Sequence record: MT682711.1
DNA: 64,000 nt
Reading direction: 5' to 3' (one strand)
Source: Escherichia phage vB_EcoM_FB
Shown here: piece by piece, positions 4,018 through 52,623 of the stretch
How positions within the stretch are numbered: the stretch's first letter is position 1
Layout of the letters: each line of letters opens with the position of its first letter
Program-made: the position numbers and the translations under genes
Notes under the pieces: generated by a model
Database searches by the model: none
Told to the model about the DNA's origin: nothing
What the model saw: only the letters and a program-made list of their open reading frames with translations

Positions 4018-4546
4018 TTTGAACCTCTTTAGCATATTCGCGGCATTCTTTAATAAAACGATTAAGCTTGCGTTGCTGTTTACGACTTTCTAACGTGTAT
4101 TCGTCGGCCAAAACAATAAGCTCGTCTTTATCGTAATTTTTAATATCAGAGTAAGATGGACGACGGTCGACCATACCAAAATGGTCACCATTTTCTAACA
4201 TCAAATAACATACTAAATGATAATCATCATCTGCATTAGTAAGCTGCTTATAATCACTCGGTTCGTTTAAAGCATATACCGAATATCTTACTCCGGCGAA
4301 TTCCACTCGTTGAATAGCCAGATTTACGTCAATAATTTCTAAAGCTTCTGCAAAAGAAAGGTCTTCAGCTAAAGCAAAGATAAAGGGTAATTTAGTAGTA
4401 TAGCCACGGTTATTTGTTCTGCTTAAGAAATCGTTAGAATAACCTAGGTCCTGGCGAATTCTATAAAGAACCGCATTAGTTTCATGGGAAAGACCACTAT
4501 GCTTAAACCAATCAACATTTGATATCAGGTCATCATATAAACCCAT
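4010..4546 (-). CDS. hypothetical protein (178 aa)
   Basis: ORF-track frame 4010..4651 trimmed to ATG at 4546 (GAGAGGAG RBS); the longer N-terminus would run through the hairpin at 4569-4586. Confidence 0.55.
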   Translation of the reverse strand: MGLYDDLISNVDWFKHSGLSHETNAVLYRIRQDLGYSNDFLSRTNNRGYTTKLPFIFALAEDLSFAEALEIIDVNLAIQRVEFAGVRYSVYALNEPSDYKQLTNADDDYHLVCYLMLENGDHFGMVDRRPSYSDIKNYDKDELIVLADEYTLESRKQQRKLNRFIKECREYAKEVQNV

Positions 4547-4595
4547 AATATTCTCCTCTCCTCCAAATGGGGAGACCGAAGTCTCCCGGGTAACA

Positions 4596-5189
4596 TTACT
4601 TAAGTGAATTGATGTAGTCGTCGATATCAGCAGAAGTCGTATCCATTCCAACTTGTGGGCCTTTAAACGTTTCTACACGCATCAAGGTATCTTCAATATC
4701 AATCTTAGTCAGTGCAGCGATTTCAACAACATCATCGGCAGTAGCAATACCAAGGGCAGCCATATTACGAGTTTCACGGATATACTCGAGCTTAACGGCT
4801 AGTTCCTGACGAGAGTCATCAAGTTCCTTGACCTTAAGCTTAATTTCATTACGCATTTCAACATAATCATCAGCTTTCTTACGAAGTTGAGTAGCCGTAC
4901 GACGATAAAGGAGGCCCAGTTTAGCATGCACCTGAACATCGGCGCCTTCTTTAATCAGCTTACGAATTTCACGTTCTTTAGAACTAGCCAGTTGGTCCTT
5001 TTCATTAGCGAGTTCACGAATACGTTTTTCTTCATTCACAGACTTAACATGGGCAGTCTGGAGCTCAGTGATTTTATCAATCAGAGTAGAAGCAGCTTTA
5101 GTATACTGGTCTTCGATTGACAGGTTCTGAGCCATTGCGGTACCCAGTTTAGAACGGATGAATTCAACGATTTTCTTTAAAGTGTTCAT
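4596..5189 (-). CDS. hypothetical coiled-coil protein (197 aa)
   Basis: ORF track; charged heptad-like helices; downstream of the early promoter at 5232-5261. Confidence 0.6.
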
Positions 5190-5231
5190 AGTATTTCCTT
5201 CAGTTGGTTAAGATTTATAATCCATGAGGAC

Positions 5232-5261
5232 ATTATACCCTGTCCTCTGAGGTTTGTAAAC
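5232..5261 (-). promoter_or_regulatory. T4-type early promoter with -10 in a hairpin loop
   Basis: minus strand GTTTAC-18bp-TATAAT; inverted repeat GAGGACA/TGTCCTC flanks the -10. Confidence 0.5.
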
Positions 5262-5264
5262 ATT

Positions 5265-5663
5265 TTATTTCATTTTTGCGAGGCAAATTTCATTGGCTTC
5301 CCATTGAGCTTGCTTAATAATAGCTTTGGATACAGGAGCCCTTTGGCCATAAGTTTTTGACGTTGAGAGAACAATACATTTGTTTGCCTCATTATGCCAG
5401 CCCCGTGATTTTTCGCCATGAGTACCTTTAACTACAGCTGACACCTCAACAGAGCAACCACCATCAGAAATCTTGGTTTCGACAATCCATTCATTTCTTT
5501 CGACAGCTTCAAGTTCTAATCTAGTTTTTTCTTCATACATGGCGGCCCAATCAGTTTTTGCCAGGTTGAAAGTGAGAGCTTTCTCCAATTCTTTGGCAGC
5601 TTTTTGTTGTTCAGGCGTTAATGAATTGTACAACTCTTGCATTTCTTTATCTTCGATATTCAT
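5265..5663 (-). CDS. hypothetical protein (132 aa)
   Basis: ORF track; GAGGAG RBS. Confidence 0.6.
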   Translation of the reverse strand: MNIEDKEMQELYNSLTPEQQKAAKELEKALTFNLAKTDWAAMYEEKTRLELEAVERNEWIVETKISDGGCSVEVSAVVKGTHGEKSRGWHNEANKCIVLSTSKTYGQRAPVSKAIIKQAQWEANEICLAKMK

Positions 5664-6048: not shown

Positions 6049-6070
6049 ATCTTTTTAAACTTTTTAGAAA

Positions 6071-6099: not shown

Positions 6100-6156
6100 T
6101 TTAACCTAGGGTAACCTTGTCGGGGTTTCACCTGCTAGGCAAGTGTTTGTACGATA

Positions 6157-6240
6157 CGCCGGGATTCGAACCCGGTTATTAAGTAGTTGACGCTACTTAA
6201 TATTTTAAAAGGCCATATCTCGACCATATCCGAACGTTCC
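6157..6240 (-). ncRNA. tRNA-like or small stable RNA candidate
   Basis: canonical T-arm CCGGG-TTCGAAT-CCCGG on minus strand preceded by a 6-bp hairpin; no matching acceptor or anticodon arm found. Confidence 0.3.
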
Positions 6241-6409
6241 GTCAAAAACGCTACTCGGCTTACGGCAAAGATATTTCCTCGAATCGATAATTCTGTGCGC
6301 CGTTTAAGCTGTGATATAAGGGGTCATTAACAAAACATAAAGATTTATTAATGTCGGTCCTTAAACAGGGAACTTCAGTCCGACGACTTACCGGTAGCGA
6401 CCCGGTTTC

Positions 6410-6760
6410 TTAATATTCTTTTAAAGAATCAATATATTCACGGCGTTTACGCCACAAATCAATTGCTTCATACGCGGATTCAGCATTTCGAATTAGCCGG
6501 CATTTATGTAAAGACTTATGATTTTGATATTGTGTAGATAACGGAATTGTATCTAAAAGGTCTTTACGATCAAAATATTCGTAACCATCTAAACCAAATG
6601 AACGATTTTTGAGAAATTGCCAATGACCATATTCGTTTTCGACATAAACATAATCTGCATGCTGATAAAGCAAATTAATTACACGTTCAGAAATAACAGT
6701 ATCATTATGATTAAAATAGAATGTTAAATCATGAACTACTAAATAAACATTACCTTTCAT
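6410..6760 (-). CDS. hypothetical protein (116 aa) inside the tRNA cluster
   Basis: ORF track; GAGGA RBS 16 nt downstream of the tRNA-Arg 3' end. Confidence 0.5.
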   Translation of the reverse strand: MKGNVYLVVHDLTFYFNHNDTVISERVINLLYQHADYVYVENEYGHWQFLKNRSFGLDGYEYFDRKDLLDTIPLSTQYQNHKSLHKCRLIRNAESAYEAIDLWRKRREYIDSLKEY

Positions 6761-6778
6761 ATTTTCCTCACTTATAAT

Positions 6779-6854
6779 TGGTCGAGGCAGTAGGGATCGA
6801 ACCTACGACCTAGGACTTAGAAGGTCCTTGCTCTTCCTTCTGAGCTATGCCCCG
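6779..6854 (-). tRNA. tRNA-Arg (anticodon TCT)
   Basis: hand-folded cloverleaf: acceptor CGGGGCA/TGCCTCG, D-stem GCTC/GAGC, anticodon stem AGGAC/GTCCT with loop CTTCTAA, T-arm GTAGG-TTCGATC-CCTAC, encoded CCA. Confidence 0.85.
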
Positions 6855-6857
6855 TAA

Positions 6858-7526
6858 TTAAAATTTCATTTTTCGACCTTTAAACCATCCTTCTGGAATT
6901 GGGTCAGTTTTCTTAATACGTTTAGAAACTTTTTCATCTAATGAATGAATCCACATCATACCAAATTGGGAATTCTTTTCGCCCTGTTGATGTTTATTTC
7001 TGGCGTGAGATTCTTTCATTTTATTAATAGTTTCAGGAGTATGATGCTTATTTAAAAATCTGCTATTATTTAAAAATTTTTCCCTGTATTCAGGAGTTGA
7101 CCACAAGCGTTTAAATACATTTGAACCATGTTTACGATATTTTTCTTGAAGTAAAATATCACTTTTAAAACGTGACTTAAACGATTTAGCTCCTTTTAAA
7201 CTAGCGTCTTTCTTCTGGTTTAGCATCCCAGGAATATTTATATGGTCCCAACCACCTTCACCACCTAATTTCAAATTATAAACATCAGGGCGCTTTAAAA
7301 ACTCTTCAGTCACAATATTCTTTTCTGACTCAAACATAGAGGTTTTATCGTCAAAGAACTCTCTAATATTTCTTTAGAAAAATTTTCTATACCATACTTA
7401 TCTTGGGCTCTTTTTAATAATTTACCAGAACCCATATATCCATCATCTAAATTTTCGGTAGAATGAGCGCCTATATAGATTTTTATTATTAATTTTATTT
7501 GTTATTTTATAAATGTAATGGAACAT
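6858..7526 (-). pseudogene. GIY-YIG homing endonuclease disrupted by two frameshifts
   Basis: three frames together rebuild a protein collinear with the intact paralog at 12737-13249 ([15 protein letters not shown] / [26 protein letters not shown]... / ...NLKLGGEGG...); AGGAG RBS before the first ATG. Confidence 0.6.
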
Positions 7527-7567
7527 AAATATCTCCTATTTCTAAGAGTATTTATGTTCCCAAAATA

Positions 7568-7638
7568 TGGCCCTGGGTGGAATCGAACCACCATCCAGCG
7601 ATTATGAGTCGCTCGCTTGACCGTCCAGCTACAGGGCC
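7568..7638 (-). tRNA. tRNA with CAT anticodon (Ile2-type as in T4, or Met)
   Basis: acceptor GGCCCTG/CAGGGCC perfect, anticodon stem AGCGA/TCGCT with loop CTCATAA, T-arm GGTGG-TTCGATT-CCACC; CCA not encoded. Confidence 0.8.
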
Positions 7639-7733
7639 TTAATTCTATTATGAAAGGCTCTTTGAGGGAAGAACCTTTGGTAATAGAGGGTACTTATTAA
7701 TAATAACACACAACTCTTAAAGCATATTACTTG

Positions 7734-8114
7734 TTAACCTTCATCAACAATAGTGTGGGTATTGGCATTAACAATTTGCCACCAGTCGAAACGATTAGAA
7801 CCGTATTGAGGCTTATTCTCGTTTTCTTTAATGATATCACGCAGTTCATCTTCAGTCGCGGCCTTTGCGATTAAGTCGGCATAACCGCCACGGGGATAAT
7901 AGTTATCACCAGCAAAGAGTAAAAAGTTTGTTTTAATATTCTTGAATTCTTCAAGAGTAATAACTGTTCCAGATGGTTGGACAATATCTACGTAACTATA
8001 TCCTAATTTCTGGGCTTCATTTACTGCTTCAAGCAGGGTGTCATGGGCCCATCCAATTTGACAATCCGGTTTTTCAGATGGGTTGGCTTGATAATCTGCG
8101 TACACTTTATACAT
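7734..8114 (-). CDS. hypothetical protein (126 aa)
   Basis: ORF-track frame 7734..8162 trimmed to ATG at 8114 with AGGTGA RBS. Confidence 0.55.
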   Translation of the reverse strand: MYKVYADYQANPSEKPDCQIGWAHDTLLEAVNEAQKLGYSYVDIVQPSGTVITLEEFKNIKTNFLLFAGDNYYPRGGYADLIAKAATEDELRDIIKENENKPQYGSNRFDWWQIVNANTHTIVDEG

Positions 8115-8115
8115 T

Positions 8116-8301
8116 TTACTCACCTTTAGAGATTTTATCCATAACGAAAGAGATTGAACCAATTAAAAATGCCACTACTAAAGAGATTGTATTCTCAGAA
8201 GTTGTAAGCAAATCCAACATGAATCCTGCAAACATACTAAAACTAAAAGTGGTAATAGCAATAAGGGCAGTAGCATTTCTAATTAATTCACAACGTTTCA
8301 T
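8116..8301 (-). CDS. small membrane protein (61 aa)
   Basis: ORF-track frame trimmed to the ATG after the GGAG RBS in the conserved leader; two hydrophobic segments. Confidence 0.5.
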   Translation of the reverse strand: MKRCELIRNATALIAITTFSFSMFAGFMLDLLTTSENTISLVVAFLIGSISFVMDKISKGE

Positions 8302-8337
8302 TTTATTCTCCAATCACTCATTTGTTTTGATAGGGCT

Positions 8338-8367
8338 ATAGTATCATCACTAAAGCCCGTTGTAAAC
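8338..8367 (-). promoter_or_regulatory. T4-type early promoter with conserved leader
   Basis: minus strand GTTTAC-18bp-TACTAT then AGCCCTATCAAAACA; partial inverted repeat GGGCT/AGCCC. Confidence 0.5.
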
Positions 8368-8369
8368 AA

Positions 8370-8630
8370 TTATTTTAGATAAATTGCATATTTTTTATAG
8401 CCAGCTGTCTCGTGGCGCAACCCTTTGTCATTAGCAAAGCGTTCAATATTATTAATTTGGTTTTGGTCGAGTTCTGAAATATCAAATACAAAAAAGTTTC
8501 TCTTATTGCCTAAAGTTACGTGATTAGTCAAATCGATGTTATAGAGATGATTTATATTATCAATCACGGTCTTAACAGATTTGTTAATTTTTACTTCCTC
8601 ATTAAGAATAAATTCTTGATAAGTTTTCAT
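8370..8630 (-). CDS. internal protein (ipI-locus) with capsid-targeting N-terminus
   Basis: N-terminus MKTYQEFILNE resembles the T4 internal-protein targeting peptide with an L-x-E protease site (recalled from T4); lies next to 57B as ipI does in T4. Confidence 0.6.
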   Translation of the reverse strand: MKTYQEFILNEEVKINKSVKTVIDNINHLYNIDLTNHVTLGNKRNFFVFDISELDQNQINNIERFANDKGLRHETAGYKKYAIYLK

Positions 8631-8667
8631 TTTGGGTTCCGTTTGGTTAGTTTGTTTTGATAGGTCT

Positions 8668-8696
8668 ATAGTATCATATTTATAGACCTTGTAAAC
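8668..8696 (-). promoter_or_regulatory. T4-type early promoter inside an inverted repeat
   Basis: minus strand GTTTAC-17bp-TACTAT; inverted repeat GGTCTATA/TATAGACC; leader GACCTATCAAAACA. Confidence 0.55.
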
Positions 8697-8703
8697 AACT
8701 TTT

Positions 8704-9381
<678 letters not shown>

Positions 9382-9389
<8 letters not shown>

Positions 9390-10143
9390 TTTTATTTCCT
9401 AATAATTTATCAATAGTAGTGTATAGTTCAGAAAGGGTTCCGTTATTTTCAACAACAACGTCACCAGGTAAAATTGGTAGACCCGCTTCAGTAATGTGCG
9501 AGTCTTGTACTTGACCGGTATCAGCGCGAACTACATGAATAATCGTAGCACCCATCGCCCTGAGCGAATCAATTTCATGTGTTTGACGAACATCAGGTAC
9601 GACATAGTATTTCGCATCAGAGTATATTTTATCAAAATAGTCTAAAGCGAATAACTTAACCCAATACATTTTATCAAATCGGTTAACAATAATATCAGTC
9701 CCAAGGGTCTGCATGAGACGACGTACTGACCAATTGTTATTTTTATTTATTACTTCAAACAGTTGGTCTTTTGTTTCTTCAGACAGATACTGGACTGGGG
9801 TAAGACCATAATGATATGCGGTACGAACATCCATTCCTGGAATAGGAAGGATATTATTCAGTTTGACAATAGCATTTTCAAAGATATCAATCACATCATA
9901 TGGTTTTAAAGGAATGATTTCTTCACGGTCGTAACCGATACCTTCAAAACAGTTAAAATCTAGTTTAGGCATGTAACTACGGTCGAATACAGGGTCATCA
10001 GAGATGTATTCATAGGCTTCAGCCAGATACTTTTTAATAGGACCTGCGAGCTGAAATTTTACCGAATCCATATTTTCGATTACATAGTTAGCAACGGTAT
10101 CCTTACCGCTACGTTTGATTCCTACAATTGATATTAGTTTCAT
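9382..10143 (-). CDS. 1: deoxynucleoside monophosphate kinase gp1
   Basis: P-loop GIKRSGKDT; conserved blocks WSVRRLMQ.LGTD, MYWVKLFALDY, AMGAT.IHVVR match T4 gp1 as recalled. Confidence 0.9.
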
Positions 10144-10733
10144 TATTTTCTCATAGATGGATGCATAGACATACGAGCCACTCGTTGTTCGGCATACGAA
10201 TCAATTTGTGGACGACCTGTAACTATTGTACCATCTATTTCTACAGCAAACGATTTGAAGTTGAATGTTGCTGTGGCGATTATCGCCGGGTCAGAATCCT
10301 CTTTATAAGAGTACTGGATTTCCGAGAGGTCGGATGGCCAACCACCGTAGTAATGAATGCTCATTACGATTTTCTGTTTGTTGTTATCAAGGATGTGGAG
10401 GGTGATAGCTTCCGGTTGACCTTTAGGATGCCAGGCTTCTGAATCATGGGTTACATAGTTGTTTAATGACAACATCCACTTATAAACGTCAAGCCACGAT
10501 TTCAATTCACGGTCCACAAGAAAGTTCACAATCAATGGGTCGAATTCTACAGTAGAACCTGGCAGCTTAGCACGATGTATACCCTGGGTCGATCCTGGGA
10601 CGTCTGAGACCGGAATATGGATACCAGGTAGTGTTACATCTTGCACGTTTAATTTGAATGCCTGCGTCATTCCTGCGTCACTAACCTCTAAGATAAAGTT
10701 AGTAGTGTTAGTTTGGTTAAATAAACCGTTCAT
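10143..10733 (-). CDS. 3: tail completion / sheath stabiliser gp3
   Basis: synteny 1-3-2-4; start uncertain (Met22 would give 175 aa, near T4's 176). Confidence 0.75.
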   Translation of the reverse strand: MNGLFNQTNTTNFILEVSDAGMTQAFKLNVQDVTLPGIHIPVSDVPGSTQGIHRAKLPGSTVEFDPLIVNFLVDRELKSWLDVYKWMLSLNNYVTHDSEAWHPKGQPEAITLHILDNNKQKIVMSIHYYGGWPSDLSEIQYSYKEDSDPAIIATATFNFKSFAVEIDGTIVTGRPQIDSYAEQRVARMSMHPSMRK

Positions 10734-12134: not shown

Positions 12135-12737
12135 ATGCTCTTCTCATTTTTCGATCCTATAAATTACGAATCAAAAACAGTCAAGCCAGATTCCGGCTCA
12201 TTAACTGATGCCGATGTACTGAGCGTACCGATGACTGATATATTTAGAAACTATAAAGAATATTTTGATAAAGTGGCTAAAAATTATACACTTAAAACAT
12301 ATTATATCAGTGGGGCCCCTCGTCCAGAAGAATTAGCCCATCAACTTTATGGTAACGTGCAATTATATTGGATCCTTTTAATGTGTAACAATATCTATGA
12401 CCCTTATTACGGCTGGATTACAGGCCAAGAATCTGCGTATCAAGCAGCTATTCAACGTTATGCTACTGCAGGCGGAAACCAAGTCCTTTATCATGTCAAT
12501 GAAAAGGGTGAGAAATTCTGGAATCTAGTAAATACTCCGGAAAATCCTTATACTTGGTACGATAAAGGTGATACAGAAAAACGTTATCCTCAATATGAAG
12601 GTCCTTTGGCTGCAGTAGATATTTACGAGGACGCCATTCGTAAAAATGAATATAAGCGCGAAATAAAGATTATAGACCCTAATGACATCGAGTCCTTTGT
12701 TTCCGCTTTAATTAGAGAAATGGAGAAGTCACTCTAA
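12135..12737 (+). CDS. 53: baseplate wedge protein gp53
   Basis: 200 aa; first gene of the plus-strand baseplate block, before gp5. Confidence 0.8.
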   Translation: MLFSFFDPINYESKTVKPDSGSLTDADVLSVPMTDIFRNYKEYFDKVAKNYTLKTYYISGAPRPEELAHQLYGNVQLYWILLMCNNIYDPYYGWITGQESAYQAAIQRYATAGGNQVLYHVNEKGEKFWNLVNTPENPYTWYDKGDTEKRYPQYEGPLAAVDIYEDAIRKNEYKREIKIIDPNDIESFVSALIREMEKSL

Positions 12738-13249
12738 TGTTTTATTACGTCTATAAAATAACCAATATAATTAATGGTAAATTTTATATCGGTGCTCATA
12801 GTACATCAAATATGGATGACGGTTATATGGGCTCAGGTAAATTAATTAAACGCGCTATACTAAAATACGGCATTGAAAATTTCAAAAAAGAAATATTAAA
12901 ATTTGTTGATTCTAAAAAAGAAATGTATGAACTCGAAAAAGAACTTGTTGTCCTTACTGAAAATTCATACAATTTAAAACCGGGCGGTTCCGGTGGGTTT
13001 TTAAAACATGATAACTTTAAAGGCAGGTCCCATAGTCAGAAAACCAAAGATATTATGAGCGCTAATAACTCAGGCAAAAACAATCCTATGTATGGTAGAA
13101 AACGAGACCAACACGGAGAAAAAGCACCTAATTATGGTAAAAAGTGCTCTGAGGCTAAAAGAAAATTACTTTCTGAAAAATCTAAATCCTATTTTGAAAA
13201 CCTTCAAACCATAACTAAAAAATCTCGGCTTTGGTCCTACATCGGTTGA
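12737..13249 (+). CDS. GIY-YIG homing endonuclease (seg-like)
   Basis: N-terminal YVYKITNIINGKFYIGAHS; later NLKPGGSGG and basic C-terminus; start overlaps gp53 stop (TAATG); T4 has no gene here. Confidence 0.8.
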   Translation: MFYYVYKITNIINGKFYIGAHSTSNMDDGYMGSGKLIKRAILKYGIENFKKEILKFVDSKKEMYELEKELVVLTENSYNLKPGGSGGFLKHDNFKGRSHSQKTKDIMSANNSGKNNPMYGRKRDQHGEKAPNYGKKCSEAKRKLLSEKSKSYFENLQTITKKSRLWSYIG

Positions 13250-30817: not shown

Positions 30818-31462
30818 ATGAACTATAATAAGATTTACAAATCTTTAATAAATAAGGGCCTCGAAAGAGGTCTAAATAAAAAGAAGGTAGGGTTTTATAC
30901 AGAGAAGCATCATATTGTCCCTAAATCCATGGGTGGTAGTGAAGACAAATCTAATTTTGTTCTTTTAACCGCTAGAGAACATTTTGTAGCTCATCAATTA
31001 TTGTATAAAATACACAAAAACCGTTCTATGGCCCATGCTATGATTAATATGTGTGCTGATAGCACAGGTAATAGGGTTAATTCTAAGTTATTAGATTGGC
31101 ACCGTAAAGCTAAGGCTAGGGCCCAAAGCGAGATGGTTTCAGGTGAAAACCATCCTATGTATAACAAGAAACATAAAAAAGAAACATTAGAAAAAATGAG
31201 ATTGGCCAAATTAGGCGTCCCATGGACTGAAGAAGTTAAGGAATCTAGAAGAGAAGAATTACTTAAAACCTCTGAACATGCTAGGACTTTCATCGACTAT
31301 AAATCTGGCGGAGAAAATTCAGCCGCAAAGAAAATATGTATAGAAGGTATAGTATTTGATTATATGGAAGAAGCGGTTCCTTGGTGTAATATATCAAGAA
31401 GAACTCTTTTAAATAGAATCAAATCTTCAGACCCTAAATGGAGGGATTGGAATTATGTCTAA
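30818..31462 (+). CDS. HNH homing endonuclease
   Basis: HNH core [31 protein letters not shown]; inserted between 13 and 14; overlaps gp14 start. Confidence 0.8.
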
Positions 31463-43920: not shown

Positions 43921-45204
43921 ATGGCAAAGATTAACGAATTACTGCGCGAGTCAACAACTACTTCCAGCAACTCATTGGGTCGCCCTAATCTTGTTGCTTT
44001 GACCCGTGCTACAACCAAATTGATTTACCGTGATATTATCGCCGAACAACGTACTAGCCAGCCTATTGCTGCACTGTATGGTGTCAAATATCTTACCCCT
44101 GATAATGAATTTAGTTTCCAGACAGGTGCCTCTTATGGTGGTGAAGTTGGTTCTAAAGACCGTGAAACTATCCCAGAACTCACAGATAAGGCCCAGGCGA
44201 TTGCTCAGGGTGAATATTTCAAGTACCAGAATGTGGTTTATAAGGCTCTTAAAGCAAGCCCACTCGCGTCCACTAGCGCCACAGAATTGGCTGATGCTCT
44301 TCAAGAAGGTTTAGTGTCATTAACATGTCGTCTGGTTCCTGATGCTGCCCATACCACTAAATTTGAAGCGAGTGATGTAGAAATCTCTGATGCTGTATTC
44401 CAGGTTAATAAATGGAATGCTCCGGTTAAGACCCGTAAATTGAAGACGGCTTTGACTGTAGAATTAGCGCAGGATATGGAATCAAATGGCTTTGACGCGC
44501 CGGCGTTCTTAGAAGACCTCTTGGCTACAGTAATGGCAGATGAAATTAATAAAGACGTTCTGCAATCTCTAATAACCGTATCCAAACGTTATAAAGTTAC
44601 TGGTGTATCTGATAACGGCATCATCGATTTGTCTTATGACAGTGCTCCTGAATCTGCACGTAAACTTTATGAACTCGTTTGTGAGATGAATTCTGAAATC
44701 CAGAAAACTACTTCTTATTCTGGCACGTTTGTTGTGGCTTCAAGTCGTGTGGCTGCAATGCTTGCAGGTTCTGGCTGGTTAAAACATAAACCCGAAGATA
44801 ATAATTGGCTTCCGGAAACTGCATACGGATATTTGTTGAATGGTCTGCCTCTGTTTTGTGACGTTAACAGTCCATTAGATTATGTTACCGTTGGTGTTAA
44901 AGAGAATTACGGCGGTAATGAAGTTGTCGGTTCTATTTTCTACGCTCCCTATACCGAAGGCTTAGATTTAGATGACCAAGAACACGTCGGTGCTTATAAG
45001 GTTATTGTTGACCCGGATTCATTACAACCTTCTATTTCTCTGATGGTTCGTTATGCACTATCAGCTAACCCGTACACCGTGGCTAAAGACGATAAAGAAG
45101 CTCGTGTTATCGATGCAACCAATATGGATTTAATGGCTGGACAGAGCAATATGTCTTATCTGGTTGGCGTTAAACTTCCGGCAATTATTTACGAGGCTGA
45201 TTAA
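43921..45204 (+). CDS. 24: capsid vertex protein gp24
   Basis: 427 aa, same length as T4 gp24; N-terminus MAKINELLRESTTT and ELAQD/INKDVLQSLITVSKRYKVTG blocks. Confidence 0.9.
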   Translation: MAKINELLRESTTTSSNSLGRPNLVALTRATTKLIYRDIIAEQRTSQPIAALYGVKYLTPDNEFSFQTGASYGGEVGSKDRETIPELTDKAQAIAQGEYFKYQNVVYKALKASPLASTSATELADALQEGLVSLTCRLVPDAAHTTKFEASDVEISDAVFQVNKWNAPVKTRKLKTALTVELAQDMESNGFDAPAFLEDLLATVMADEINKDVLQSLITVSKRYKVTGVSDNGIIDLSYDSAPESARKLYELVCEMNSEIQKTTSYSGTFVVASSRVAAMLAGSGWLKHKPEDNNWLPETAYGYLLNGLPLFCDVNSPLDYVTVGVKENYGGNEVVGSIFYAPYTEGLDLDDQEHVGAYKVIVDPDSLQPSISLMVRYALSANPYTVAKDDKEARVIDATNMDLMAGQSNMSYLVGVKLPAIIYEAD

Positions 45205-46484
45205 TGTCTAAGATTGTAGACCTAATTAAAGAATCCACATTGACGGCTGCCAGCTCGGTTGGCCGTCCTGCTCTTCTTTCATACACCCAAGCAACTAATA
45301 AACGAATCTTTAAAGCCCTAGTTGCTGAACAAAAAACAAATCAACCGGTTGCTGCTCTGTATGGGGTACGTGTACTGAATCCTGACGACAAAATGACTTA
45401 TCTTGGTGGAGCAACATTTGCGGGCCAGATTGGTATGACGGAACGTGAAAATATTCCAGAATTTACTGATTCATCTACAGCTTATGCGGTCGGTGATATG
45501 TTCCAGTTTGAAAGCGTAGTGTTTAAAGTTCTAGAAGCATCTCCTTTCGCCGGAACCACAGAAACCAACCTCAGCGAAGTTATTTCTGAAGCAGTGGCAG
45601 CCGGCCATATCCGTATGGTGTCGGATGCTGCTATTACTTCTAAATTTGAACAAGGCCATCCTGAAATTGCTGAAACCGGATTCCGTATCGACAAATGGCA
45701 ATCTGAAGTTAAATCACGTAAACTGAAAACTTCATTGACAGTCGAATTAGCCCAAGACCTAGAATCTAACGGGTTTAATGCTCCTAATTTCGTTGAAAAT
45801 CTGCTAGGCATTCAAATGGCAGAAGAAATTAATAAGGATGTATTACAGTCATTAATTACCGTGAGCTCTCGTTTTAAAGTCCAGGGTGTTTCTGAAAAGG
45901 GTGTATTAGACCTTACCAACCCTCGCTACGATAATGCCCAGGACCGTGCTCGCACATTATATTATTATATGTGTGAGATGAACTCTGCCGTCCAACGACA
46001 GACTTCTTTTGCCGGGACTTATGCAGTAGCTAGTTCTCGTTGTGCTGCTATTCTCGCCGCCTCTGGTTGGGTTGAGAAAAAGGAAGACCAGGACGAATTG
46101 GCTTATGGTATATTAAAGAATGGCCTACCACTTTATGCTGATATGAATAGTCTATGTGATTATGTTATTGTTGGTGTAAATGCCCAGATGGGTGAAGGAC
46201 AGACGGTCGCATCTTTATATTATGCGCCTTATACGGAAGGTTTGAATGTGGTTGACGAAGAAGGTGATACTTCAGTTGGTGAATTTAAGGTTATTGTTGA
46301 CCCGGAAAGCTTACAACCTACAGTAGCATTGCTTGCTCGTTATGCATTGACTGCAAACCCTTATACCGTCGCTAAGGACGATAAAGAAGCCCGCATTATT
46401 GATGGTTCTGATATGGACAAAATGGCTAATCAAAGTCAATTGAGTTCTTATCTCGGCGTAAAATTACCGCCTTTAGAAAAATAA
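45204..46484 (+). CDS. second gp24-like capsid vertex protein (diverged paralog)
   Basis: 426 aa collinear with the gene at 43921-45204 over its whole length, roughly half identical by eye. Confidence 0.8.
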   Translation: MSKIVDLIKESTLTAASSVGRPALLSYTQATNKRIFKALVAEQKTNQPVAALYGVRVLNPDDKMTYLGGATFAGQIGMTERENIPEFTDSSTAYAVGDMFQFESVVFKVLEASPFAGTTETNLSEVISEAVAAGHIRMVSDAAITSKFEQGHPEIAETGFRIDKWQSEVKSRKLKTSLTVELAQDLESNGFNAPNFVENLLGIQMAEEINKDVLQSLITVSSRFKVQGVSEKGVLDLTNPRYDNAQDRARTLYYYMCEMNSAVQRQTSFAGTYAVASSRCAAILAASGWVEKKEDQDELAYGILKNGLPLYADMNSLCDYVIVGVNAQMGEGQTVASLYYAPYTEGLNVVDEEGDTSVGEFKVIVDPESLQPTVALLARYALTANPYTVAKDDKEARIIDGSDMDKMANQSQLSSYLGVKLPPLEK

Positions 46485-51506: not shown

Positions 51507-52175
51507 CTATTTATTAACTAAATTCTTTTCAAATGTTTTAACCATATAGGCCACATCTAAATCAGGAAATCCGTTCTCAACTATTATGTGTCGAAATTTC
51601 CTTCTTTTAGGCATTCCTTCCTTTATCCAAAGTTCATGAATTTCCTTTTCAAATTCCCATAATTTACTTCTCATTGAAGGCCTAGGCTGAGAATGTTTAC
51701 CTATATGAGCTTCATTAGCCTCTTTAGTACGTTTTTTACCCGACTTAGCTAACGACATAGCCTTTTTAGCTTCTTCTGTATGAGAATATGGATTTCTTTT
51801 ATGGCCATCACTTATGGCTTTTTTGGTTAATTCAGACCTTGGGATGCCTCTTATTTTTGATGCGCCTTTTTCAACAGATTCAGGGGATTTGGATGTACAA
51901 CTACCTCCTTCACCACCTGGCTTCATATTCATACAGCGAATACCTTTACCAAACTTATCCCAGGCCTCTTCTATCAAAAGCTCTTCGAATTCATAAGCAA
52001 GTTTTTCAGTATCGAAAAAGGTTCTATCGATTATTTCCATTCGGTACTTTAATCTTTTTGCATAATAGATGTAATTACCTGACCCTACATACTTATCAGA
52101 TATTTTATCAGAAGAATGCTTGCCAAAATACAGCCTAGTTCCGTTAGGCGAGTATACTAAAGTTTGGTAACACAT
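51507..52175 (-). CDS. GIY-YIG-like homing endonuclease (degenerate N-terminal motif)
   Basis: VYSPNGTRLYFGKHS...YVGSG and MKPGGEGG align with the other two GIY-YIG genes; ATG start chosen at 52175 (track start 52205 is TTG). Confidence 0.6.
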   Translation of the reverse strand: MCYQTLVYSPNGTRLYFGKHSSDKISDKYVGSGNYIYYAKRLKYRMEIIDRTFFDTEKLAYEFEELLIEEAWDKFGKGIRCMNMKPGGEGGSCTSKSPESVEKGASKIRGIPRSELTKKAISDGHKRNPYSHTEEAKKAMSLAKSGKKRTKEANEAHIGKHSQPRPSMRSKLWEFEKEIHELWIKEGMPKRRKFRHIIVENGFPDLDVAYMVKTFEKNLVNK

Positions 52176-52185
52176 GTGGTACTTT

Positions 52186-52623
52186 TTATTTTTCACCTGC
52201 TTCAAATTTCCTGAGCTCCAACATATTCTTTAATGAGAAACCTCTAGATTTGACCGCATCCAATGCCGAACTACAAAAGTCTTGTAATAAGGCCCAATAC
52301 TGGATTGACGTATCGATTTTAATTACGCTTGAATCCGCCGCCATTACAGTCTTTAATTCCGACTTCTCGTACTGGTCCATACAAACCTCATCACCAGGCT
52401 CTCCACGTCCCGTGTAGAAATCTAATCTCTTCTTAAGAGAGGTCTTTTTCTGGATTTCTAATCGCATTATCTCTTTCTTACAATTCGTATATAGTCTTAG
52501 CCATTTGCTGTGCAGCAAAACGTTGTTCTGTACTTCATACTGTAAACGAGTCCCATCAATCTTTAAATCTTCATCTAATGCATCTTGGAACGATTCTAAT
52601 TTATATTCAATCTCTTTACTCAT
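52186..52623 (-). CDS. uvsY: recombination mediator UvsY
   Basis: ATG at 52623 after AGGAAA gives 145 aa; blocks LQYE..NNV.L.SKWL, YEKSE.KTV, SRGF..K match T4 UvsY. Confidence 0.9.
   Translation of the reverse strand: MSKEIEYKLESFQDALDEDLKIDGTRLQYEVQNNVLLHSKWLRLYTNCKKEIMRLEIQKKTSLKKRLDFYTGRGEPGDEVCMDQYEKSELKTVMAADSSVIKIDTSIQYWALLQDFCSSALDAVKSRGFSLKNMLELRKFEAGEK

Follow-up and report, generated by a model that had tools for sequence, protein, structure and literature searches.

The segB locus

The window analysed here is a 64-kb stretch (64,000 nucleotides) of Escherichia phage vB_EcoM_FB (MT682711.1), in which ARAGORN and Rfam find no tRNA genes other than tRNA-Met(CAU) and tRNA-Arg(UCU), which are both encoded on the minus strand. 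The pair encloses an apparent segB pseudogene (7526..6858, minus strand) that is spread over three fragments. The features of the locus, in their order along the minus strand, are as follows.

7700-7726, minus strand: candidate T4-type middle (MotA-dependent) promoter upstream of tRNA-Met, read by eye as TATGCTTTA, 12 nt, TATTAT
7568-7638, minus strand: tRNA-Met(CAU), the upstream flank of segB (ARAGORN; Rfam tRNA 62.6 bits)
7520-7560, minus strand: predicted RNA hairpin over the segB Shine-Dalgarno sequence (AGGAG) and ATG (dG -21.4 kcal/mol, z -6.7, 0 of 200 shuffles as stable)
7443-7526, minus strand: fragment 1, with the native start and 27 codons followed by TGA; GIY motif plus 12 out-of-frame residues
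7480-7484, minus strand: frameshift site 1, A5 where all intact relatives have A4; a +1 shift at codon 15/16, between the GIY and YIG motifs
7365-7479, minus strand: fragment 2, readable in the +1 frame only; YIG motif (Y17, G19) and conserved Arg region (KIYIGAHST...KEILE)
7359-7364, minus strand: frameshift site 2, (AG)3 where all intact relatives have (AG)2; a +2 shift at codon 56/57, by which the original frame is regained
6858-7358, minus strand: fragment 3, in the original frame; remainder of the catalytic domain (FFDDK...ESEKN...YNLKLGGEGG), then the C-terminal DNA-binding region in full
6779-6854, minus strand: tRNA-Arg(UCU), beginning 4 nt past the segB stop codon (ARAGORN; Rfam 66.1 bits)
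6410-6760, minus strand: ORF116, 116 aa, between tRNA-Arg and the rnaD homologue; no Pfam match
6295-6410, minus strand: homologue of T4 rnaD (blastn, 83% over 117 nt)
6150-6287, minus strand: homologue of T4 rnaC (blastn, 97% over 139 nt)

The tRNA-Met gene occupies the position of T4 'tRNA-Ile', and a pattern search locates within it, at 7579-7589, the SegB core recognition motif as defined in PMC2330249, GGTTCGATTCC. A perfect core motif, GGTTCGAATCC, is also present within the rnaC-like element at 6162-6172. The rnaD and rnaC homologues form the end of a T4-type tRNA operon, and no Rfam family matches either of them. The candidate promoter resembles the published MotA-box consensus. In T4, segB is driven by a middle promoter upstream of the tRNA cluster (PMC2330249).

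The start of fragment 1 is strong in the ORF listing, with AGGAG 7 nt ahead of the ATG at 7526, and fragment 3 terminates at a TAA codon (6858-6860). The longest ORF of fragment 3 begins at an internal ATG and is 159 aa in length (6858-7337); a Pfam search with this ORF alone returns no domain. No Shine-Dalgarno sequence precedes the internal ATGs at 7435 and 7337, the sequence ahead of the latter being GATAAAACCTCTATG.

Two insertions interrupt the reading frame

Alignment with the intact 666-nt segB genes of JEP6, 235Ecol030PP, IME537 and RB32 (Tequatrovirus) and of LHE83 (Dhakavirus) reveals exactly two length differences, an extra A at 7480-7484 and an extra AG at 7359-7364, so that the frame-breaking changes fall within 121 nt. 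This bears out a preliminary description of the DNA, which had reported two frameshifts in a gene between two tRNAs, although its positions (near 7470 and 7370) are about 10 nt off, and of the two sites only the first is a homopolymer, the second being a dinucleotide repeat. The same description had rebuilt a seg-like protein by reading three frames in succession, and all of the protein pieces that it quoted are found. A three-frame reading is present, but the first and third frames are identical, since the insertions sum to +3, and they are separated by four stops. These native-frame stops between the insertion sites are at codons 28, 35, 43 and 51, and in spite of the net change of +3, translation from the native start therefore ends after 27 codons.

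Deletion of one A and one AG gives a single ORF of 221 aa, whose product is identical to T4 SegB (NP_049745) at 206 of 221 positions (93%) without a gap, and the nucleotide identity to the segB-annotated genes of RB32, RB33 and 235Ecol030PP is 93-96%. The repaired 221-aa conceptual translation passes the Pfam GIY-YIG cut-off (PF01541; 26.6 bits against 22.6). As the gene stands, the catalytic domain is not contained in one ORF: the GIY motif belongs to fragment 1, the YIG motif and Arg to fragment 2, and the Glu and Asn to fragment 3. The nucleotides of fragment 2 are identical to those of the intact alleles.

The agreement with related phages is well beyond what chance would give. A segment of 161 nt spanning both sites has megablast matches to 181 phage records, none of which is broken by either insertion, and in about 20 of these phages the match is 158/161, the three inserted bases being the sole differences. 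The insertions are thus derived, lineage-specific and recent.

Occurrence of the broken allele

Carriers of the allele were found by exact-sequence lookup of the 159-aa ORF, which gave four contigs, of which three were compared: a 170,711-bp contig of the ENA assembly ERZ27280550, and contigs of the Logan assemblies of SRR12228472 and ERR2241765. Both insertions are present, base for base, in all three. SRR12228472 is the run for vB_EcoM_FB itself (MT682711), a phage from poultry bedding in Spain with 39.4% GC that was sequenced by Illumina MiSeq at 134x (PMC7471389), and its Logan contig matches the window at every position of 4,268 bp. The ERZ27280550 and ERR2241765 contigs are identical to each other and are probably the same data set, so that the independent occurrences number two lineages, not three. 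Set against the window, these two contigs show 41 substitutions in 4.26 kb, concentrated at 9740-10326, and beyond window position 6070 they carry additional genes amounting to about 1.3 kb; across 6307-8832 the two carrier genomes are identical. The broken allele is present in at least two distinct phage genomes, and a single open frame is restored neither by re-assembly nor in the distinct second genome.

The additional DNA of the ERZ27280550 genome (about 1.3 kb, at 4269-5592 of the compared piece) carries two extra genes downstream of rnaC, coding for 184 aa (DUF7338) and 205 aa, that are absent from the window at about 6070; a 184-aa gene is found at the corresponding point in LHE83. Scanning IMG/VR, JGI metagenome contigs and GTDB genomes for the exact pattern of each insertion revealed no further carriers; the wild-type control pattern was found in one IMG/VR contig only, which indicates that those collections hold few such phages.

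A frameshift survey of the whole window, using nucleotide gaps and in-frame stop counts relative to LHE83 over about 60 kb of aligned DNA, finds no frame-breaking indel or internal stop in any LHE83-conserved coding sequence other than segB. Seven other stop-count flags were dismissed, one being an alignment that overruns the gp54 stop codon and the remaining six being short unannotated ORFs antisense to, or out of frame within, annotated LHE83 genes. Indels of a length other than 3n that might have been exceptions proved to be intergenic or in a 5'-UTR. One of these, a 1-nt indel at about 5214, was rejected as a second frameshift, as it precedes the conserved Shine-Dalgarno sequence and ATG of an e.6-like gene.

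Expression and predicted loss of function

In T4, an equivalent hairpin of -20.2 kcal serves as a translational attenuator over the segB Shine-Dalgarno sequence and start (PMC2330249), and folding of the window sequence indicates that this attenuator is still intact. SegB is toxic in excess and of relaxed specificity, and it is kept at very low levels in T4 (PMC2330249, PMC13096335). The enzyme recognises the TψC motif GGTTCRANTCC and cuts the 3' ends of tRNA genes, with a preference for tRNA-Asn (PMC2330249); Y17 and G19 are catalytic residues, mutated to obtain a catalytically dead T6 SegB (PMC13096335).

In vB_EcoM_FB, ribosomes initiating at the native start would halt at codon 28, and the frameshift at codon 15/16 would remove both Y17 and G19. 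Two downstream ORFs appear to offer no substitute, neither having a Shine-Dalgarno sequence or a complete catalytic domain. We infer that active nuclease is no longer made, in which case the tRNA genes of co-infecting phages would go uncut and the locus would not drive its own preferential inheritance; site-specific cleavage and preferential inheritance are both predicted to be lost. The locus would then persist only as a transcribed spacer between two tRNAs. Sequence and synteny mark it as an orthologue of T4 segB, but its reading frames predict that it no longer functions as a member of that family.

Alternative explanations

It could be argued that the gene is intact in the phage and that the extra A and AG are low-complexity errors of sequencing or assembly, and homopolymer sequencing errors had indeed been offered in the preliminary description as the alternative to a decaying endonuclease. 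In favour of this, both insertions fall in short repeats, the intervening sequence matches intact alleles exactly, as it would if they were errors, and the two changes total +3. However, the insertions recur when the same reads are independently re-assembled (Logan), and again in a second genome that was sequenced in another run; Illumina MiSeq at 134x is not a platform prone to insertions at A5 or in AG repeats, the gain of an AG dinucleotide is not a homopolymer error, and no other conserved coding sequence is frame-broken in the approximately 60 kb of aligned DNA. The finding of two breaks in 121 nt of a dispensable gene, with none elsewhere and with the same breaks in a second genome, is a strong argument against sequencing error, which we consider most unlikely, and it is the decaying endonuclease that is supported. 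Given that the evidence is at the level of assemblies, phage stocks may contain a minority intact variant.

Two further explanations accept the insertions as real and retain a product. Ribosomes might make a trace of full-length SegB by slipping +1 on the A-run and then shifting -1/+2 at GAGAG, which would place a further restraint on a toxic nuclease that T4 keeps at very low levels. Slipping on A-runs is known for tRNA-Lys, and both shifts together would restore the exact wild-type protein, but the arrangement is not conserved, more than 180 relatives all lacking it, an A5 run is too short to slip efficiently, neither site reads as a canonical slippery heptamer (X XXY YYZ), the folds downstream of the sites are no better than shuffles (z -0.62 and +0.04), and two independent inefficient events would give a negligible yield. 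With no signal for programmed frameshifting or bypassing found at segB in conservation, slippery site or downstream structure, recoding is barely credible. Alternatively, the 159-aa ORF (6858-7337) could be a domesticated remnant, expressed as a nuclease-dead protein that binds tRNA genes and, for example, shields TψC sites from a rival SegB. This ORF is open and spans the entire DNA-binding region, its frame is fortuitously restored by the +2 insertion, and the allele is common to two genomes. Against such a role, its ATG at 7337 is without a Shine-Dalgarno sequence and the ORF is without a Pfam domain; moreover, the allele differs from intact alleles by the insertions only, leaving no time for selection, and the carriers are identical across 6307-8832, which provides no evidence of purifying selection. 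We therefore view a domesticated remnant as very unlikely, and the broader proposition that the broken locus is not inert, acting either as an 'anti-homing' 159-aa nuclease-dead binder or as a source of trace SegB by rare double slippage for toxicity control, is likewise very unlikely.

Our preferred reading, to which we assign a probability of about 0.88, is that vB_EcoM_FB segB is a genuine, recently inactivated pseudogene of a free-standing GIY-YIG homing endonuclease. The appropriate annotation is one segB pseudogene in place of three small hypothetical ORFs, and the insertions should be left as they stand, not 'corrected' as if they were sequencing errors.

Mosaic origin of the locus

The backbone of the genome is that of a Dhakavirus, with about 95% identity to LHE83, PSD2002 and E33 and 91-92% to JS10. 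Segment-by-segment comparison across the locus gives the following affinities.

Upstream ORF and spacer: Dhakavirus type
tRNA-Met: 100% identical to JS10 (Dhakavirus); 91.7% to Tequatrovirus copies
segB, 3' two-thirds: 99.1% to JEP6; 75% to LHE83
tRNA-Arg: 100% to Tequatrovirus IME537; 89.5% to JS10
ORF116 (6410-6760): 100% over 351 nt to JEP6 and IME537; absent from LHE83, E33 and JS10
rnaD and rnaC homologues (6150-6410): homology to the Dhakavirus backbone resumes

Throughout the block that runs from segB to ORF116, identity to Tequatrovirus phages is 99-100%. An assignment of tRNA-Met to the Tequatrovirus type was ruled out by its complete identity to the JS10 copy. The segB segment has a GC content of 29.9%, the lowest of all 669-nt stretches, against 39.5% for the window. 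ORF116 travels with segB and is also absent from T4 and RB32.

The corresponding position is in a different state in each of four Dhakavirus genomes.

JS10: Met-Asn-Arg, no endonuclease gene (6955-7187 of the compared piece)
E33: Met-Arg (7601-7757 of the compared piece)
LHE83: Met-segB-Arg, with an intact gene whose C-terminal half differs (7100-7960 of the compared piece)
vB_EcoM_FB: broken Tequatrovirus-type segB between tRNA-Met and tRNA-Arg

Both tRNA-Met and tRNA-Arg of LHE83 and E33 are of another sequence type than the JS10 and window copies.

The simplest history that we can infer from these sequences is intergeneric transfer followed by recent decay. A block of Tequatrovirus-type segB, tRNA-Arg and ORF116 would have replaced Asn-Arg in a JS10-like Dhakavirus with a Met-Asn-Arg site, entering either by homing of the SegB type or by ordinary recombination, with both direction and mechanism read from the mosaic boundaries. 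One boundary appears to coincide with the SegB cutting position at the 3' end of tRNA-Met, and the other to fall within rnaD. Replication slippage at a pair of short repeats would subsequently have inactivated the transferred gene. Its decay may have been neutral, which is what the homing-cycle model predicts once a gene is fixed, or it may have been favoured, since a nuclease that has relaxed specificity and is toxic in excess is costly.

Together with JS10, E33 and LHE83, the window provides empty, intact and freshly broken states at one locus in one phage genus, as well as an apparent Tequatrovirus-to-Dhakavirus transfer, bounded on one side by the tRNA 3' end at which SegB cuts. A recent report attributes the amplification of tRNA and anti-defence genes to SegB (PMC13096335), and a natural segB-null phage that is three bases from intact could therefore be a convenient control.

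Other homing endonuclease candidates and paralogs in the window

An intact Seg-like gene of 170 aa, with GIY-YIG and NUMOD3 domains, is located exactly between gp53 and gp5 (12737-13249, plus strand). The preliminary description was right to regard this paralog as intact; the collinearity that it saw with the broken gene holds for the N-terminal 110 aa or so (57% identity) but not for the C-terminal domains, which are unrelated. The gene is absent from the gp53/gp5 junction in LHE83, E33 and JS10, is 99.7% identical in IME540 (a 'putative Seg-like homing endonuclease'), and is about 84% identical in KIT01, P896, P479 and PSD2001.

Among the neck genes (gp13/gp14 region), a 214-aa ORF (30818-31462, plus strand) with HNH, NUMOD3 and I-TevI-type DNA-binding motifs fills an insertion of about 626 bp relative to LHE83, and looks like another intact free-standing homing endonuclease gene. 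A 232-aa ORF (51507-52205, minus strand) similarly fills an insertion of about 663 bp relative to LHE83 and contains 'KPGGEGG'. It has no match in a Pfam search and a weak match to the SegB catalytic domain (tblastn, 28.7% over 108 aa, E 2.7e-7), and may encode a divergent GIY-YIG endonuclease. Tandem paralogous capsid-vertex (gp24-like) genes at 43921-45198 and 45204-46481 (plus strand) are about 55% identical to each other and are arranged as in LHE83.

Comparison with known systems

T4, whose SegB has been characterised experimentally (Brok-Volchanskaya et al. 2008, PMC2330249), carries segB in its tRNA cluster, as the preliminary description had stated, and the two loci agree in the position and orientation of the gene between a CAU-anticodon tRNA and tRNA-Arg, followed by rnaD and rnaC. 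They also share the hairpin at the start site and the GGTTCRANTCC target motif in the flanking tRNA. T4, a Tequatrovirus where the window genome is a Dhakavirus, differs in that its segB is unbroken and not interrupted by two frameshifts, its cluster contains 8 tRNAs rather than 2, and no ORF116 follows its tRNA-Arg. A closer parallel in backbone (about 95%) is the segB-like gene of LHE83 (WEY10064.1), which fills the same slot between tRNA-Met and tRNA-Arg and has about 91% DNA identity to the window gene in its N-terminal catalytic part. However, its reading frame is uninterrupted, identity drops to about 75% over the 3' half (the DNA-binding domain), and the flanking tRNAs are of the other type.

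Decayed homing endonuclease genes are a familiar feature of T-even phages, and the vB_EcoM_FB segB is a further instance. The defunct I-TevIII of T4 is a degenerate T-even homing endonuclease gene (PMC2790892) that, like the window segB, has been retained after losing its intact frame, but it is intron-encoded and truncated. Split or degenerate segB entries are also seen in vB_EcoM_PTE-Eco15 (PQ352352), where the gene matches in two pieces and is annotated as two genes, and in vB_SsoM_113, which has a 'truncated SegB-like protein'; the first is compared by match and annotation and the second by annotation. The lesion of I-TevIII differs from the insertions described here, as those of PTE-Eco15 and vB_SsoM_113 probably do.

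Knockout of a selfish gene such as segB is an ordinary and expected stage in the life of such genes. The model of Goddard and Burt is said to describe a homing-endonuclease cycle of invasion, fixation, degeneration and loss, and was reportedly framed for intron and intein endonucleases in eukaryotic populations. The Dhakaviruses fit this cycle in presenting empty (JS10, E33), intact (LHE83) and broken (vB_EcoM_FB) sites, and differ from it in that the window segB is a free-standing gene situated between tRNA genes.
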